A stretch of 35,555 nucleotides of DNA from a virus: IMG/VR virus record IMGVR_UViG_3300048583_000185, positions 1 through 35,555 of that record, one strand, 5' to 3'. A program made the position numbers and the translations under genes. The notes under the pieces were generated by a model, which ran no database searches, was not told the DNA's origin, and was given only the letters and a program-made list of their open reading frames with translations. Shown here piece after piece: positions 4,121 to 8,741 of this stretch; position 1 is the first letter of the stretch; every line of letters begins with the position of its first letter.

Positions 4121-4521
4121 CGGATCAGTCAGACGCTGAGCACCCGCCTGCCACTGCCGGCGCCGACCCATTCGCCTGCATGGCCTCCGTCTTGGCCAAG
4201 GACAGGCCGCAGCAAAGCTGGATTACCGCCCCGCAGGTGACGCCGCTGCCAGAGGGAACCACCCGCGTCTCGGCGATGCTTTCGCTGCTGGCGACCGGCG
4301 GGCAATCTGCGGCCGAGCTGGCTGCGGCGGCTGGCGGCATTCCCACTGGGGCAGTGAGTGCGCTGCTGCACTCCCGCATGGAGCGCGGGCAGGTTCGGCG
4401 GGAGTGTGGAATCTATGAGTTGGTCCCTGAGTACGAAGACGAACTACACGCCAAGCTCAAGGCGGCCGCTTTGTGGCTGCGAGAGCACGGGTATGTGGTC
4501 AGCAGGGAGACGAAAGCATGA
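4117..4521 (+). CDS. Hypothetical protein with a probable winged-helix domain, 134 aa
   Basis: ATGA overlap. VSAMLSLLATGGQSAAELAAAAGGIPTGAVSALLHSRMERGQVRRE looks like a MarR-type wHTH. Confidence 0.55.
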   Translation: MTDQSDAEHPPATAGADPFACMASVLAKDRPQQSWITAPQVTPLPEGTTRVSAMLSLLATGGQSAAELAAAAGGIPTGAVSALLHSRMERGQVRRECGIYELVPEYEDELHAKLKAAALWLREHGYVVSRETKA

Positions 4522-4784
4522 GCAGCGTCAAGAAGCCCGTGCGGCTGGAGCTGAACAACAGCGGAAGCTGGAAGGTGATCGGCCGCTTCGAAGCGGCAGA
4601 CGACGAGCAGAGCAGTTTGGTGCTGGATGCGGCCGAGGAACTGATTAAGACGCTGCACAACAGCGAAGACCCGAAGCGCTGCCCGACGATGCGGGTGAGC
4701 ATGGACGGCGGTCTGGGGAGCGTGCTTTTGCGCTGGAGCTTGGTCGACGGATGGCGGGATGCGGAGACGGGCAGGGCGGCCTAA
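4518..4784 (+). CDS. Hypothetical protein, 88 aa. Its TAA stop lies inside the GCCTAAC box of the distal attC.
   Basis: ATGA overlap at 4518-4521. Protein-like composition (MSSVKKPVRLELNNSGSWKVIGRFEAADDEQ...). Confidence 0.6.
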   Translation: MSSVKKPVRLELNNSGSWKVIGRFEAADDEQSSLVLDAAEELIKTLHNSEDPKRCPTMRVSMDGGLGSVLLRWSLVDGWRDAETGRAA

Positions 4785-4832
4785 CGCCTAGCTCACCGGC
4801 CGCTTGCGGTCCGGTGCAGCGCGGTGTTATGC
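4779..4832 (-). other. attC site (distal, 54 bp)
   Basis: Minus strand: GCATAAC-ACCGC-GCT[G]CACCGG[A]CCGC-AA-GCGGCCGGTGAGC-TAGGC-GTTAGGC. It has a 13-bp stem, two extrahelical bases 7 nt apart on the R''/L'' arm, and unpaired 5-nt spacers. Confidence 0.7.
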
Positions 4833-4857
4833 GTGTGGTTCCGAAGCGTGGAGATGT

Positions 4858-5913
4858 ATGAATGAGTTGGCTCTTTTCGCAGGCGCTGGTGGCGGAATAC
4901 TCGCAGGCCACATGCTGGGCTGGCGCACCGTCTGCGCAGTTGAGCGTGATGCCTACGCCGCACAAGTTCTGGCGCAACGACAGAACGATGGAGCCCTCCG
5001 ACCATTCCCGATTTGGGCTGACGTGTGCGGCTTTGACGGAAGACCGTGGCGCGGACTTGTTGACGTGGTTTCGGGGGGCTTCCCTTGCCAAGACATCAGC
5101 GTTGCCGGCAAGGGCGCCGGCATTGACGGAGAGCGCAGCGGCATGTGGAGCCACATGGCGCGGATCATTGGCGAAGTTCGACCCCGCTTCTGCTTCGTGG
5201 AGAACAGCCCAGCCCTCGTTACTCGGGGACTCGGAAGAGTGCTCGGTGACCTGGCCGCGCTCGGGTATGACTGCCGGTGGACTGTGCTGGGAGCTGCCGA
5301 CGTTGGCGCCCCCCACCAGCGCGACAGGTTCTGGCTTGTGGGTGCCGACACCCTGCGCGACCGATGCGAAGCCGATCACGGGCGGGAACCTTTACGTGAC
5401 GGAAACGGGCACGGTGCGACACATGCGGCCGGATGGCAAGAGCAGCAACCGGGGCCTTGCAGCGAGTGCGGCCATGTGGCCGACACCCACCAGCAGCCTG
5501 GGCACGAACGGCGGCCGTGTGACGCCTGCCAAGGCTCTGGAAGGCGGGACGCTGATAGAGGCGCTGAGTGCGCGGACCACTTGGCCGACGCCGACCGTAT
5601 GCGACAACTACAACCGCAAGGGAGCCAGCGCGACCAGCGGGGACGGGCTTGCCACTGCGGTGCTGAAGTTTCCGACGCCTTCGACGCTTGGCATCAATGG
5701 CGGCAGTCATTCTCAAGCGGCGGCAGTGAAGCGCGGCCAGGCGGTGACGGAAGTCAATGGTGGCTCGCTGAACCCGACGTGGGTCGAGTGGCTAATGGGG
5801 TGGCCTATCGGGTGGACCGACTTAAGGCACTCGGAAACGGACAGGTGCCCCGATGCGCAGCCACAGCCTGGCGAATGCTCACTGGTGGCATGAGCGACAC
5901 GCATAACGGCTGA
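4858..5913 (+). CDS. dcm: DNA (cytosine-5) methyltransferase, 351 aa (frame A)
   Basis: Motif I LFAGAGGG, motif IV GGFPCQDIS, motif VI FVENSPAL, motif VIII APHQRDRFWLVG, C-terminal motif X RLKALGNGQVP. GGAG at 4850-4853. The middle third (Arg/Asp/Gly/His-rich) looks poor in this frame. Confidence 0.7.
   Translation: MNELALFAGAGGGILAGHMLGWRTVCAVERDAYAAQVLAQRQNDGALRPFPIWADVCGFDGRPWRGLVDVVSGGFPCQDISVAGKGAGIDGERSGMWSHMARIIGEVRPRFCFVENSPALVTRGLGRVLGDLAALGYDCRWTVLGAADVGAPHQRDRFWLVGADTLRDRCEADHGREPLRDGNGHGATHAAGWQEQQPGPCSECGHVADTHQQPGHERRPCDACQGSGRRDADRGAECADHLADADRMRQLQPQGSQRDQRGRACHCGAEVSDAFDAWHQWRQSFSSGGSEARPGGDGSQWWLAEPDVGRVANGVAYRVDRLKALGNGQVPRCAATAWRMLTGGMSDTHNG
4862..5893 (+). CDS. Overlapping same-strand ORF in the +1 frame of dcm, 343 aa, with WPTPT repeats and a C-terminal LNPTWVEWLMGWPIGWT motif
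   Basis: ATG lies 8 nt after the same GGAG. Balanced composition throughout. Repeated (W/F)PTP(T/S) units. I recognise the C-terminal motif from phage methylase-associated proteins. It is unclear whether it is translated. Confidence 0.4.
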   Translation: MSWLFSQALVAEYSQATCWAGAPSAQLSVMPTPHKFWRNDRTMEPSDHSRFGLTCAALTEDRGADLLTWFRGASLAKTSALPARAPALTESAAACGATWRGSLAKFDPASASWRTAQPSLLGDSEECSVTWPRSGMTAGGLCWELPTLAPPTSATGSGLWVPTPCATDAKPITGGNLYVTETGTVRHMRPDGKSSNRGLAASAAMWPTPTSSLGTNGGRVTPAKALEGGTLIEALSARTTWPTPTVCDNYNRKGASATSGDGLATAVLKFPTPSTLGINGGSHSQAAAVKRGQAVTEVNGGSLNPTWVEWLMGWPIGWTDLRHSETDRCPDAQPQPGECSLVA

Positions 5914-5985
5914 GTTCAGCGGGCCGCGTGATGCGGCCTGAAAGTGCGGAGTCCGTGACGGCTCCGCTGCAACGATTGGTTAGGC
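5901..5985 (-). other. attC site (proximal, 85 bp)
   Basis: Minus strand: GCCTAAC-CAATC-GTT[G]CAGCGG[A]GCCG-(32-nt variable loop)-CGGCCCGCTGAAC-TCAGCC-GTTATGC. This is the same 5-nt/6-nt spacer and bulge geometry as the aadA1 attC. Confidence 0.75.
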
Positions 5986-6006
5986 CCTGGTGGCCGAAGG
6001 GGAAGA

Positions 6007-6255
6007 ATGATGAACACCAAAGAGAAAGCCGCGATGGATGCGGGCGTGCAGTTCGGCATGAACATGCTCAAACTGGTGCCAAGCGACGACAAGCTGGCGC
6101 AGGAAGCCCACATCACCGGCGTGCTGGTGGCATTCATGGGCGCGCTGTGGGGCACGCTGGGCACCGAGTACGCACGGGGCTTCATTGAGGCCCAGCTTCG
6201 CGGCATGGAGCCCGACAAGCCGCATGAGCGATTCACGGCGCCGCCCGTGCAGTAA
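6007..6255 (+). CDS. Hypothetical protein, 82 aa (cassette 1 ORF)
   Basis: GGGGAAG SD precedes ATGATG. Flanked by GTTAGGC (5979-5985) and GCCTAAC (6258-6264). Central hydrophobic stretch ITGVLVAFMGALWGTLG. Confidence 0.6.
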   Translation: MMNTKEKAAMDAGVQFGMNMLKLVPSDDKLAQEAHITGVLVAFMGALWGTLGTEYARGFIEAQLRGMEPDKPHERFTAPPVQ

Positions 6256-6257
6256 GG

Positions 6258-6318
6258 GCCTAACTTCAATTCGCCAACACCCTGACCACCTCCCCGTCGC
6301 ATAACACCGAGCCGCCGC
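6258..6318 (-). other. attI-like site
   Basis: Minus strand from the intI ATG: GTTATGC (6305-6299), GTTGGCG (6278-6272), GTTAGGC (6264-6258). All are direct repeats with no attC-type palindrome, comparable to the DR/L/R box layout of attI1 ending in GTTAGGC. Confidence 0.55.
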
Positions 6319-7350
6319 ATGCAAGTCATTGATCTGCCATTACCCGCAGCGGTTACGCACGACGCCGCTCCCGCGTTATGCGACGCGCCACCGAAGCGGC
6401 TTAAGCAGCTCATGCGCGAAGCCTGCGCGGTGCGCCATTACAGCCGGCGCACGTTCCAGGCGTACTGGCACTGGTCGAAGCGCTTCATCCTCTGGTCAGG
6501 TAAGCGGCACCCGCGCGACATGGGCCAGCTCGAGGTGTCCGAGTTCCTGACCTGGCTGGCCATCGAAGGCAACGTCTCAGCCAGCACTCAGCGCCAAGCT
6601 CTGCACGGCATCCTGTTCTTGTACCAGGCGGCGCTCGGTATCCAGATCGGCTGGATCGAAAACATCGTGCGGGCCAAGCAAGCCCAGCGACTGCCCACAG
6701 TGATGTCTGTCGACGAGACTTCGGCAGTGCTGGCGGCCACCAGCGGCACGCCTGGGCTTTTCCTGCGGCTGCTGTACGGTACCGGCCTGCGGCTGATGGA
6801 AGGTCTGCGCCTGCGGGTCAAAGACCTGGACATCCCCCAGCGATTGGTGATCGTGCGCGGCGGCAAGGGCGACAAGGATCGCGTCACCGTGCTCCCAGAG
6901 CGCCTCGTCAAGCCCCTGACCGAGCTGCTCGATCAGCGCCGCCGCTGGCACCAGATCGACATGGCCACCGGGCACGCCAGCGTTGACCTGCCACACGCGC
7001 TGGCCAAGAAGTACCTGCGCGCTGGCTCCGAGTGGCCCTGGCAGTACGTCTTTGCCACGCCCGAGTACCACGTCAACCCAGACACCGGCGAAGAGCGCCG
7101 TCACCACCTTTTCGACTGGACCATCCAGCGCGCCATGAAGGACGCGGTACGCGCTGCCGGCGTCACGAAGCCAGCCACCCCGCACACGCTGCGGCACTGC
7201 TTTGCCACTCACCTGCTGCAGGCCGGCACCGACATCCGCCGCATCCAGGAGCTGCTGGGTCATGCAGACGTCAGCACGACCATGATCTACACCCACGTCG
7301 CCTCCATGGGACACACCGGCGTGCGCAGCCCGTTGGACGCGCTTGCATGA
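6319..7350 (+). CDS. intI: Integron integrase (IntI-type tyrosine recombinase), 343 aa
   Basis: Collinear by eye with IntI1: HYSRRTFQAYWHWSKRFI, STQRQAL, LLYGTGLRLMEGLRLRVKDLD, GKGDKDR, ATPHTLRHCFATHLL, LLGHADVSTTMIYTHV, GVRSPLDAL. It also has the IntI-specific insert DLPHALAKKYLRAGSEWPWQYVFA (nt 6979-7056). Confidence 0.85.
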   Translation: MQVIDLPLPAAVTHDAAPALCDAPPKRLKQLMREACAVRHYSRRTFQAYWHWSKRFILWSGKRHPRDMGQLEVSEFLTWLAIEGNVSASTQRQALHGILFLYQAALGIQIGWIENIVRAKQAQRLPTVMSVDETSAVLAATSGTPGLFLRLLYGTGLRLMEGLRLRVKDLDIPQRLVIVRGGKGDKDRVTVLPERLVKPLTELLDQRRRWHQIDMATGHASVDLPHALAKKYLRAGSEWPWQYVFATPEYHVNPDTGEERRHHLFDWTIQRAMKDAVRAAGVTKPATPHTLRHCFATHLLQAGTDIRRIQELLGHADVSTTMIYTHVASMGHTGVRSPLDALA

Positions 7351-7586
7351 CCACACTCGACATCCCCGCGATTGCTGAGCTGCTTGGCGTCAGCGCTAAG
7401 ACCGTGCGCGACCGCTTGGTGCATCGGCCCGACTTTCCGCCGCCACTGCTTGCAGCCGGCCCTCGATCTCGCCGCTGGTGCGCCGCCGAAGTCACCGCCT
7501 GGGCGACGCCAGCCGCGCGGCGATCTCCTGCGCCGTCTCGCGGAAATACACCCGCAGCAGAAGCGACAAGTCCCGATGCCCGCTGA
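7347..7586 (+). CDS. xis: Excisionase/AlpA-like MerR-type HTH protein
   Basis: LDIPAIAELLGVSAKTVRDRLVHRPDFPPPL...RRWCAAEVTAW is the HTH_17/Xis pattern. ATGA overlap with the intI stop. The 3' 95 nt overlap the convergent integrase gene, so the true stop is uncertain. Confidence 0.6.
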   Translation: MTTLDIPAIAELLGVSAKTVRDRLVHRPDFPPPLLAAGPRSRRWCAAEVTAWATPAARRSPAPSRGNTPAAEATSPDAR

Positions 7587-8517
7587 TCCGTGCGAGCGTC
7601 AGCACATCGACGCGGCGCGACAGCATTGTCAGCGCCGTGGCTCTGGCGTCATGGAAATGCACATCGCCCAGCATCACAGAATCCCGCACTCGCCGGAATA
7701 GCGTGTCCAGGGTGGCTGAAGACAGCGGAAGCAGCCGCCCGTCATCACCCGCCGCCGCCTCCGCCAGCCAGCCCAGCACGCGCGCGCCCTGCGGAGTCAG
7801 CGGCACCAGGCGCCGACCGACAGCGTGCGCTGTCTTGTGGTCGGCCAGCGTCACTACGCGGCGTTGCAGATCGACGGAGCCAACGGTTAGGCCCATGATC
7901 TCGCCGGCCCGCATCGCCGTGCGCAAGCTGACCAGCAGCGCCCAGGCAACGCACTGCAGACCGGTCACCGGCGGCACTGCTGTCCGGTAATCGCAGCGGC
8001 GCATGATGGTGCGGATTTCGCGCCATCCCATGCGCCGGTCGCGCGGGATGGCCTCGGCGGGCATCCTGACGGCTCGCCAGGGCGTCGGCGACGGACTCCA
8101 GGCCCACTCGGTGCTGGCCACCGTCCAGACGTGCCGCAGGATGTTGATGTCGCGCTGCACGCTGGCCGGCGTCACGCGCTGCAGCCGGGCGTCGCGCCAC
8201 TGGCCGAGGTCGTCGGCGGTGATGGTGTGCAGCACCTTGCCGCACAGCGCAGGAAAGTCGCGCTGGATGGCCGCCAGGCGCAGCCGCTCGGCCCTCGCGC
8301 CGCGCTTTTCCGCCGTGATCTCGCGCTCGTAGCGGTCAAGCGCATCGGCCAGCGTCTTGCGCGGCCAACGGCTGACGGTGCCGGCAAGGATCGCCGCTTC
8401 TTCCTGCGCGGCCCATGAGCTTGCCGCAGCTTTGGTGCCGAAGGTGCGCGACGTCCGCACACCCTGGCGCTCGATCTCAACGCGCCAGCCTTTCGCCGTC
8501 TTGCGGTAATACGCCAC
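7492..8517 (-). CDS. int: Phage tyrosine integrase, 341 aa
   Basis: N-terminal arm-binding-type MAYYRKTAKGWRVEIERQG. Catalytic LRTAMRAGEI (R), HFHDARATALT (HxxR), GHRDLSLLLRVYF (H...Y). Adjacent to attP. Confidence 0.85.
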   Translation of the reverse strand: MAYYRKTAKGWRVEIERQGVRTSRTFGTKAAASSWAAQEEAAILAGTVSRWPRKTLADALDRYEREITAEKRGARAERLRLAAIQRDFPALCGKVLHTITADDLGQWRDARLQRVTPASVQRDINILRHVWTVASTEWAWSPSPTPWRAVRMPAEAIPRDRRMGWREIRTIMRRCDYRTAVPPVTGLQCVAWALLVSLRTAMRAGEIMGLTVGSVDLQRRVVTLADHKTAHAVGRRLVPLTPQGARVLGWLAEAAAGDDGRLLPLSSATLDTLFRRVRDSVMLGDVHFHDARATALTMLSRRVDVLTLARISGHRDLSLLLRVYFRETAQEIAARLASPRR

Positions 8518-8741
8518 GCGGGAATCCTTGCGGGACTGGCGCGGGATGACGCCGAGGTCTTGCGGGATTCTGCGCGGCGTTAGGCGGGATTGAGCCTAGG
8601 TATTTCGGGGTTGTGCGGGGCGTTGCGAGGTGCTATGCGGTGCAGGTTCTGGCGCCCCCGGCAGGAATCGAAAGCCTCGCCAGCGCTTGCGATCGACGGC
8701 ATAGGCGGGAATTGTGCGGGATGCGAATTAGGTCAGCCGAC
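8518..8741. other. attP region with arm-type repeats
   Basis: Six or more same-orientation copies of GCGGGA(T), starting at 8530, 8541, 8562, 8584, 8705 and 8715, plus a degenerate copy at 8614. They flank a tRNA-3'-end-like core. Confidence 0.6.
8650..8672 (-). other. attP core candidate: 3' end of a tRNA gene (T-loop, T-stem, acceptor stem, CCA)
   Basis: Minus strand TTCGATTCCTGCCGGGGGCGCCA reads as T-loop TTCGATT, stem CCTGC, acceptor CGGGGGC, discriminator G, CCA. The upstream bases do not complete a T-stem or the rest of a tRNA. Confidence 0.55.

Follow-up and report, generated by a model that had tools for sequence, protein, structure and literature searches.

A probable attC site in a small integron of a temperate siphovirus-like phage

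Introduction

Integrons are seen as devices with which bacteria capture genes, and the few published phage cases look like pieces taken from a host. An 85-bp imperfect palindrome at positions 5901-5985 of the virus record IMGVR_UViG_3300048583_000185 (IMG/VR; 35,555 nucleotides, hereafter the window, meaning the whole stretch of DNA that was analyzed) had been picked out from the sequence alone as having the geometry of a canonical attC site, with an array pointing away from the integron integrase gene, intI. We asked whether this element, named attC1 here, is a true attC and what it belongs to. Our conclusion is that attC1 is very probably the attC of the first cassette in a small complete integron (intI, attI and two cassettes) of a temperate siphovirus-like phage. 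This conclusion draws on what could be observed directly, namely the match in sequence and structure, the family of the integrase, the boundaries of attI and of the cassettes, and the existence of related arrays.

Architecture of attC1

Reading both strands gave exactly the boxes, spacers, arms and loop of the original 85-bp parse:

5901-5985, minus strand: attC1, the attC of cassette 1, found by covariance model R1 (below) and by a strict geometric scan; the minus strand is the top strand, and the window plus strand is the bottom, recombinogenic strand
5985-5979, minus strand: R'' box GCCTAAC, an exact fit to RYYYAAC
5978-5974, minus strand: unpaired 5-nt spacer CAATC on the R'' side
5973-5959, minus strand: L'' arm GTT[G]CAGCGG[A]GCCG, with extrahelical bases at 5970 and 5963
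5970 and 5963: the extrahelical bases, G on top and C on bottom at 5970, A on top and T on bottom at 5963, both on the R''/L'' arm
5958-5927, minus strand: variable loop (variable terminal structure, VTS) of 32 nt
5926-5914, minus strand: L' arm CGGCCCGCTGAAC
5913-5908, minus strand: 6-nt spacer TCAGCC
5907-5901, minus strand: R' box GTTATGC, with one mismatch to GTTRRRY

The pair list of the canonical fold holds 13 Watson-Crick pairs in the L stem, and the two unpaired bases that had been claimed for the R''/L'' arm are borne out at 5970 and 5963. As integrated, the R boxes pair at 6/7 positions. After excision, the R' box would become G+TTAGGC, which fits GTTRRRY exactly and pairs with R'' at 7/7 positions. 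The crossover is predicted to lie at G5907/T5906 on the top strand and at A5906/C5907 on the bottom strand.

The original prediction had likened this layout to that of the aadA1 attC. That template was correct, as we read the same layout directly from the class 1 attCs of aadA2, gcuF and dfrA12 in AB571791: a 7-nt box, 5 nt, 3 bp, a bulge, 6 bp and a second bulge, and on the other arm a 6-nt spacer and GTTRRRY. Applied to the 15.7-kb AB571791 locus, the strict geometric scan recovered the three true attCs alone, and on both strands of the window it returned a single site, 5901-5985. In shuffled windows, the same pattern occurred with a mean of 0.19 matches, and 51 of 300 shuffles held at least one. 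Since the pattern is not rare in shuffles, evidence beyond geometry is needed.

The first extrahelical base had also been singled out as a peculiarity. It is indeed a G on the top strand, but it is hardly an oddity, being G in 12 of 54 bacterial attCs.

Covariance model search and a second site

To score the site on sequence and structure together, we aligned 54 bacterial and class 1 attC sites, imposed the canonical structure and built a covariance model, R1. The training sites came from arrays in 80 bacterial loci encoding IntI relatives and from AB571791, and the window was searched with filters off. A scan of this kind had been proposed as a check in the original prediction. Model R1 matched attC1 over its full length on the minus strand with 57.5 bits (E 8.7e-11), in the upper part of the range of bacterial attCs (32-69 bits). 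The plus strand of 5901-5985 gave no match at E <= 10, in agreement with the claim that the minus strand is the attC top strand.

The model search and a relaxed scan revealed a second site:

4779-4832, minus strand: attC2, the attC of cassette 2, GCATAAC-ACCGC-GCT[G]CACCGG[A]CCG-CAAG-CGGCCGGTGAGC-TAGGC-GTTAGGC

This site scored 45.8 bits (E 3.3e-8) on the minus strand and 10.3 bits on the plus strand. It fails the geometric filter, as its 3' spacer has 5 nt, yet it was detected by model R1. Its crossover would lie at G4785/T4784. The next best match in the window reached 15.7 bits (E 0.14), and the search of the window found no further attC beyond 4779. The original prediction had included neither attC2 nor the phage context nor the opposite-strand cassette genes.

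The stems of attC1 and attC2 differ by compensated changes (GTT/AAC to GCT/AGC and CAGCGG/CCGCTG to CACCGG/CCGGTG). The same holds more widely: among 53 attCs from phage contigs, in an alignment that was fitted to the attC model and thus favors the structure, 89.8% of the cells pair and 10 of the 13 L-stem pairs are changed on both sides. The covariation score was 0.459 for these sites and 0.139 when they were shuffled (0/500 shuffles reached 0.459), and it was at most 0.094 when the partners were slid. One viral contig, L252, carries an attC whose L arms are identical to those of attC1, whereas its loop, R boxes and cassette differ.

The integrase and attI

The array had been claimed to point away from intI. 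This holds: the integrase lies 334 bp from attC1, in the predicted orientation. The features of this end of the integron are the following:

6319-7350, plus strand: intI, integron integrase of 343 aa (TIGR02249, PF13495, PF00589)
6258-6307, minus strand: attI-like site, a conserved block recognized by comparison of seven loci
6264-6258, minus strand: attI core GTTAGGC, a perfect GTTRRRY
6280-6273 and 6307-6295, minus strand: further attI GTT boxes, GTGTTGGC and GTGTTATGCGACG, respectively

IntI matched NCBIfam TIGR02249 with 417.6 bits (cut-off 265) over model positions 5-315 of 315, and Pfam PF13495 and PF00589. It is 52% identical to IntI1; the alignment has 3 gaps, near the N-terminus, and none in the IntI-specific segment. 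The catalytic tyrosine is Y324, aligned with Y312 of IntI1. An exact-protein look-up of IntI returned no record, and the closest relatives are encoded by the viral contigs L001-L007, with 66-95% identity.

Upstream of intI, these seven loci align from the intI start to exactly GCCTAAC (6258-6264), beyond which the sequences are unrelated. The conserved block, 6258-6318, thus adjoins the 5' end of intI, and the cassettes upstream of it differ in the seven loci. Likewise, blastn homology with L001-L007 is limited to 6256/6259-7352, that is, the attI region and intI. On the minus strand, the block reads GTGTTATGCGACG...GTGTTGGCGAATTGAAG|TTAGGC and holds three GTT boxes. This comparison of sequences supports 6258-6318 as a putative attI beside the intI 5' end, with a predicted crossover at G6264/T6263. 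L001 (IMGVR_UViG_3300048583_000145), whose IntI is 95% identical, has its end exactly at CCTAAC of the attI core, which would fit an assembly that stopped at a point of cassette variation within the sample. A metagenome scan with the attI motif AACWTCAATTCGCCARCAC gave 44 matches, 0 of them beside an intI homologue; we therefore treated these matches as chance.

The start of intI may lie elsewhere than annotated. The annotated start lies between the two halves of a perfect 11-nt inverted repeat, CGTCGCATAAC / GTTATGCGACG (6295-6385). In L001-L007, the DNA of the boxes ATGCAAGTC, GTTACGCACGAC and GYGTTATGCGAC is conserved and the intervening sequence varies, and the TIGR02249 alignment leaves out the first 31 intI codons. 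Because of the conserved boxes and these 31 codons, the true start may be Met32 (6412). The boxes themselves may be IntI-binding or regulatory DNA.

Two cassettes with chained R boxes

The two attC sites and attI delimit two cassettes:

5907-6263, minus strand: cassette 1, 357 bp; its sole gene encodes the 82-aa ORF82 (open reading frame of 82 aa; 6007-6255, plus strand)
4785-5906, minus strand: cassette 2, 1122 bp; its gene encodes a DNA methyltransferase (4862-5893, plus strand)

The methyltransferase gene matches PHROG 1008, DNA methyltransferase, with E 2e-33, and ORF82 has a GC content of 0.66/0.40/0.85 at codon positions 1/2/3. In the integron model, each G| is followed by six bases that come from the next cassette. 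The R boxes of the window obey this rule: the attI core G|TTAGGC matches the attC1 R'' box GCCTAAC at 7/7 positions, and the attC1 R' box G|TTATGC matches the attC2 R'' box GCATAAC at 7/7 positions, whereas the pairs as integrated match at just 6/7 positions each. Together with the boundaries of attC1 and attC2, the chained boxes define two cassettes.

The box GCCTAAC occurs in 7 copies in the window versus 1.6 expected, and no shuffle reaches 7. Apart from the three copies in the integron, one copy falls inside the phage integrase gene and another just beyond it (7886-7892 and 8579-8585, minus strand). Stop codons also meet the sites. A plus-strand ORF at 4473-4784 ends with a TAA (4782-4784) inside the GCCTAAC complementary to the attC2 R' box, the TAA in the attC1 R'' box (5980-5982) terminates a spurious ORF of the minus strand, and the ORF82 stop (6253-6255) lies 2 nt ahead of the attI core.

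ORF82 homologues with 62-91% identity were present in 10 viral contigs, and in 5 of these an attC lies beside or near the gene. The homologue stands between attC sites in L162 (in a non-first position), L164 and L169, and attC sites were found only upstream of it in L166 and L168. In L163 and L165 (4001-4243 in each; 90% and 81% identity), we found no attC near the homologue. The same gene thus occurs inside and outside cassettes.

Taking sequence, structure, model score, position, orientation and cassette logic together, we are highly confident that attC1 is a genuine attC. Within the attC family it is an ordinary site, and what is unusual is the integron around it.

Phage context and the IntI lineage

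The window encodes a large terminase, portal, major head, major tail, tape measure, distal tail and tail fibre proteins, a primase/helicase and a GH108 endolysin, and it carries a deoxynucleoside monophosphate (dNMP) kinase gene and the DNA methyltransferase gene on the plus strand upstream of attC1. It is a siphovirus-like temperate phage. Next to the integron lies a separate int/xis module:

7492-8517, minus strand: phage-type tyrosine integrase (PF00589), converging on intI
7347-7520, plus strand: HTH_17 excisionase-like ORF, whose start codon overlaps the intI stop

With this module beside the integron, IntI is not needed for phage integration, and the integron is better seen as a platform for accessory-gene exchange than as the integration system of the phage. 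We accordingly rejected the idea that IntI is the integration enzyme and the palindrome or attI its attP, given the separate integrase and HTH_17 ORF at 7347-8517; an attP reading of attI is also at odds with the phage DNA on both sides of it. A scan of the window found no tRNA. Plus-strand gene calls downstream of intI were discarded, as the GC content at third codon positions places the real genes there on the minus strand.

The viral loci with IntI relatives are real phage contexts. Homologues of the window tail fibre occur in 15 of them, and homologues of the endolysin, the phage integrase and the dNMP kinase occur in others; only one bacterial locus has homologues of those phage genes, and it is on the same contig as a viral locus. 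The integrases separate in the same way, the nearest neighbor of a viral IntI being viral in 72/81 cases and that of a bacterial IntI bacterial in 76/78. Close relatives of the window IntI (66-95% identity) were found solely in viral contigs, and the best match in species-representative bacterial genomes has 59% identity. Among GenBank phages, nine records carry an IntI homologue, all with <=53% identity.

KX853513.1 (Virus Rctr41k; L297), a 41-kb sequence from a methane-oxidising enrichment, is the sole other deposited phage-like record with an unexplained IntI homologue. The gene, annotated xerD (4680-5678; 43% identity), has co-directional small genes upstream and two methyltransferase-like genes downstream. 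The attC-like matches in this record are weak (27 and 20 bits).

Observations against the assignment and rival explanations

Several observations weigh against attC1 being the working attC of a standard integron. The R' box, GTTATGC, has a T at one R position of GTTRRRY. The training sites of model R1 were selected with a geometric filter that attC1 also passes, which makes the match partially circular. Both cassette genes, whose strands were called by homology (methyltransferase) and by codon-position GC (ORF82), are transcribed in the direction of intI, which makes them antisense to the attC top strand. Integrons are expected to have sense cassette genes and a cassette promoter (Pc) near intI/attI. 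Neither was found here, as 4600-6500 holds no sigma-70-like promoter on either strand and none facing the cassettes. Finally, neither the IntI protein look-up nor the metagenome scan, in which a 29-nt piece of the attC1 loop gave no match, turned up an excised or rearranged form of this very locus.

The folding of attC1 points the same way. With DNA parameters, the attC fold of the isolated bottom strand reaches -15.1 kcal/mol, whereas a structure of three local hairpins is more stable at -21.5 kcal/mol. The original prediction had named a more stable alternative to the R/L-box pairing as an outcome that would speak against an attC, and such an alternative is present. For the canonical L stem, the folding probability (pfold) is 4.85e-5, which ranks last among the 107 sites examined, comprising 54 bacterial sites (median 0.31) and 53 phage-contig sites (median 0.27). 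In minimum-free-energy folds, the 32-nt loop and adjacent arm bases form local hairpins at 5922-5938 and 5946-5967 (plus strand), which tie up parts of L' and L''. The two lowest bacterial pfolds, 8e-5 and 1.2e-4, are close to the attC1 value, and attC2 adopts the canonical fold with a pfold of 0.92. Folding of attC sites in vivo is influenced by integrase binding, the single-stranded DNA-binding protein SSB and replication, so that a thermodynamic pfold is only a rough predictor. The poor folding of attC1 thus lowers our confidence in a high recombination activity and leaves our confidence in its identity unchanged. The current activity predicted for attC1 is uncertain. The loop hairpins themselves may act as a damping device or an RNA element, or may reflect decay.

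The alternative that survives best is that attC1 is a true attC by descent and now a poorly active or inactive relic, both cassettes being effectively fixed in the phage. Segments able to pair with both L arms would have arisen in the loop or been acquired by it, so that the recombinogenic hairpin seldom forms. The pfold at the bottom of the 107 sites, the sequestration of L' and L'' by the two hairpins and the lack of any variant arrangement in the protein look-up and the metagenome loop scan all favor this possibility, and attC1 has a part in the excision of both cassettes. However, its boxes, spacers and bulges are all intact, its model score is in the upper bacterial range, two bacterial sites fold nearly as poorly, and pfold is imprecise given the in vivo factors. 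We consider a relic unlikely, though worth keeping in mind.

Alternatively, the hairpins might act mainly as RNA, as an mRNA stabilizer, a processing site or an attenuator, and the resemblance to attC would be secondary. The plus strand is the sense strand of the phage early operon, and the structure lies between the methyltransferase stop (5893) and the ribosome-binding site of ORF82 (~5996). Both flanking genes and intI are on this strand, the local hairpins are stable (-22.2 kcal/mol, z = -2.0), and relatives often have the next start codon in the attC loop. Yet there is no T run and no terminator-like site, the model score is strongly specific to the DNA top strand, and an RNA role leaves the R boxes, the 5/6-nt spacers, the bulge positions, the chain rule and the adjacency of intI unexplained. 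As the main function it is therefore quite improbable, but an additional RNA role could coexist with attC function. An intrinsic terminator was rejected, there being no T run and no candidate in a promoter/terminator scan of 4600-6500. Rfam at gathering thresholds gave no match in the whole window; to our knowledge, Rfam has no attC family, and this null result is thus uninformative.

A chance palindrome or generic intergenic repeat of the REP (repetitive extragenic palindromic) type in a GC-rich genome would fit the 0.19 geometric matches per shuffled window and the unremarkable fold z-scores of about -2, but we give it practically no credence in view of the model E-value of 8.7e-11, the absence of other copies in the window, and the placement of the sites: the 35.5 kb hold no more than two, each at a gene boundary upstream of intI and on the strand expected, and their R boxes are chained.

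Orientation of cassette genes in viral and bacterial arrays

The antisense orientation of the cassette genes could be a peculiarity of the window or a property of its relatives. We therefore took the best-coding ORF of each cassette bounded by two model R1 matches, removed duplicates, and compared viral loci L001-L080 and L162-L169 with bacterial loci L082-L161. In viral-contig (IMG/VR) cassettes, 102 genes were antisense and 21 sense (102/123), whereas bacterial cassettes had 14 antisense and 97 sense genes (~87% sense, n=111; Fisher's exact p = 4e-29). Counted by locus, 32/41 viral loci versus 4/32 bacterial loci were mostly antisense. In close relatives, plus-strand ORFs occupy the cassettes almost wholly, and the start codon of the next gene is often within the attC loop.

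The attC sites themselves are in the standard direction. All 97 model R1 matches in viral loci L001-L040 have the attC strand pointing away from intI, as do 69 of the 72 matches in L041-L080, the three exceptions ('+') all being in L080.

These data suggest that the orientation of cassette genes is set by where transcription comes from. They also suggest that phages maintain a separate cassette pool, including methyltransferases that could protect against restriction. With modest confidence, we lean toward the broader proposal that temperate phages of GC-rich (probably betaproteobacterial) hosts have their own lineage of complete integrons beside phage int/xis. Their 'backwards' cassettes would be read with the early operon and intI instead of from a Pc, and would form a phage-adapted pool of DNA methyltransferases and small phage genes, distinct from the bacterial one, that makes the integron a gene-shuffling device of the phage. 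Both the phage IntI lineage and the cassette inversion are computational results, and the orientation count applies to the loci named above.

Proposed mechanism

In vivo folding, the cleavage point and any recombination activity are modeled here on the established integron pathway. The window plus strand, that is, the attC bottom strand, would fold into a hairpin when single stranded. In this hairpin, the R and L boxes would pair, the 6-nt/5-nt central spacer would stay open, and C5970 and T5963 would be flipped out. IntI, encoded 334 bp away, would bind the two boxes, and the flipped-out bases would be read for strand choice. Tyr324 would then cleave at A5906/C5907, and one strand would be exchanged with attI (6258-6264) or attC2 (4779-4832), the junction being resolved by replication.

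Recombination between attI and attC1 would release the 357-bp ORF82 cassette, and recombination between attC1 and attC2 would release the 1122-bp methyltransferase cassette. The predicted attI-attC1 deletion junction is ...GAATTGAAG|TTATGCGTGTCG..., and the predicted junction of the circular cassette is ...CTCAGCCG|TTAGGCCCTTAC....

Comparison with known systems

Among betaproteobacterial chromosomal sites, we compared attC1 with the attC of a Burkholderiaceae metagenome-assembled genome (Betaproteobacteria; L115:456-515), which reads GCCTAAC-AACCG-GTT[G]CAGCGG[A]CGGCGC...CCGCTGAAC-CGGAGC-GTTAGGC. The two share the R boxes, the 5/6-nt spacers, the bulge positions, the orientation relative to intI, a nearly identical L'' arm and G as the first extrahelical base of the top strand. 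However, attC1 is in a phage and its cassette gene is on the other strand. It also has a long loop (32 nt) that competes with the stem, its pfold being about four orders of magnitude under the bacterial median.

With the class 1 attCs of AB571791, attC1 shares the arrangement 7-5-3bp-bulge-6bp-bulge...6-7, spacers resembling xATTC and TCxxxC, and an A as the second bulge on top. It differs in its first bulge, which is G and not C on top, and in its antisense cassette ORF, and the phage IntI is only 52% identical to IntI1.

In 'inverted integrase' chromosomal integrons, such as that of Treponema denticola, intI is flipped relative to attI and attC. The window resembles them in the shared direction of transcription of intI and the cassette genes. 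In contrast to these integrons, it has intI, attI and attC in the standard arrangement, and the inversion concerns the genes that the cassettes carry.

Integron parts have been described in phages before. Qi et al. 2023 (Front Microbiol, PMC9892861) reported three complete integrons and one In0 in temperate phages, the complete ones being pieces of Vibrio/Shewanella chromosomal integrons or class 1 integrons. They also reported 17 attC clusters without intI in phages, some with methyltransferase genes; phage attCs recombined with IntI1/attI1, and the cassettes of two virulent phages were co-oriented, as is typical of bacterial arrays. Our case is similar in having integron parts in a phage genome and a DNA methyltransferase cassette. 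It is different in its phage-associated IntI lineage, in the complete integron beside int/xis and in the inverted cassette genes.

Significance

What the window adds is a complete canonical intI-attI-attC arrangement in an otherwise ordinary temperate phage, beside the integrase of that phage. The arrangement has many counterparts in viral contigs but none in deposited phage genomes, where IntI homologues have <=53% identity. The poor foldability of attC1 offers a natural test of how the loop sequence tunes the stability of a cassette. If our reading is true, it bears on the origin of cassettes, on the exchange of accessory genes among phages and on the trade of cassettes between phage and bacterial integrons.

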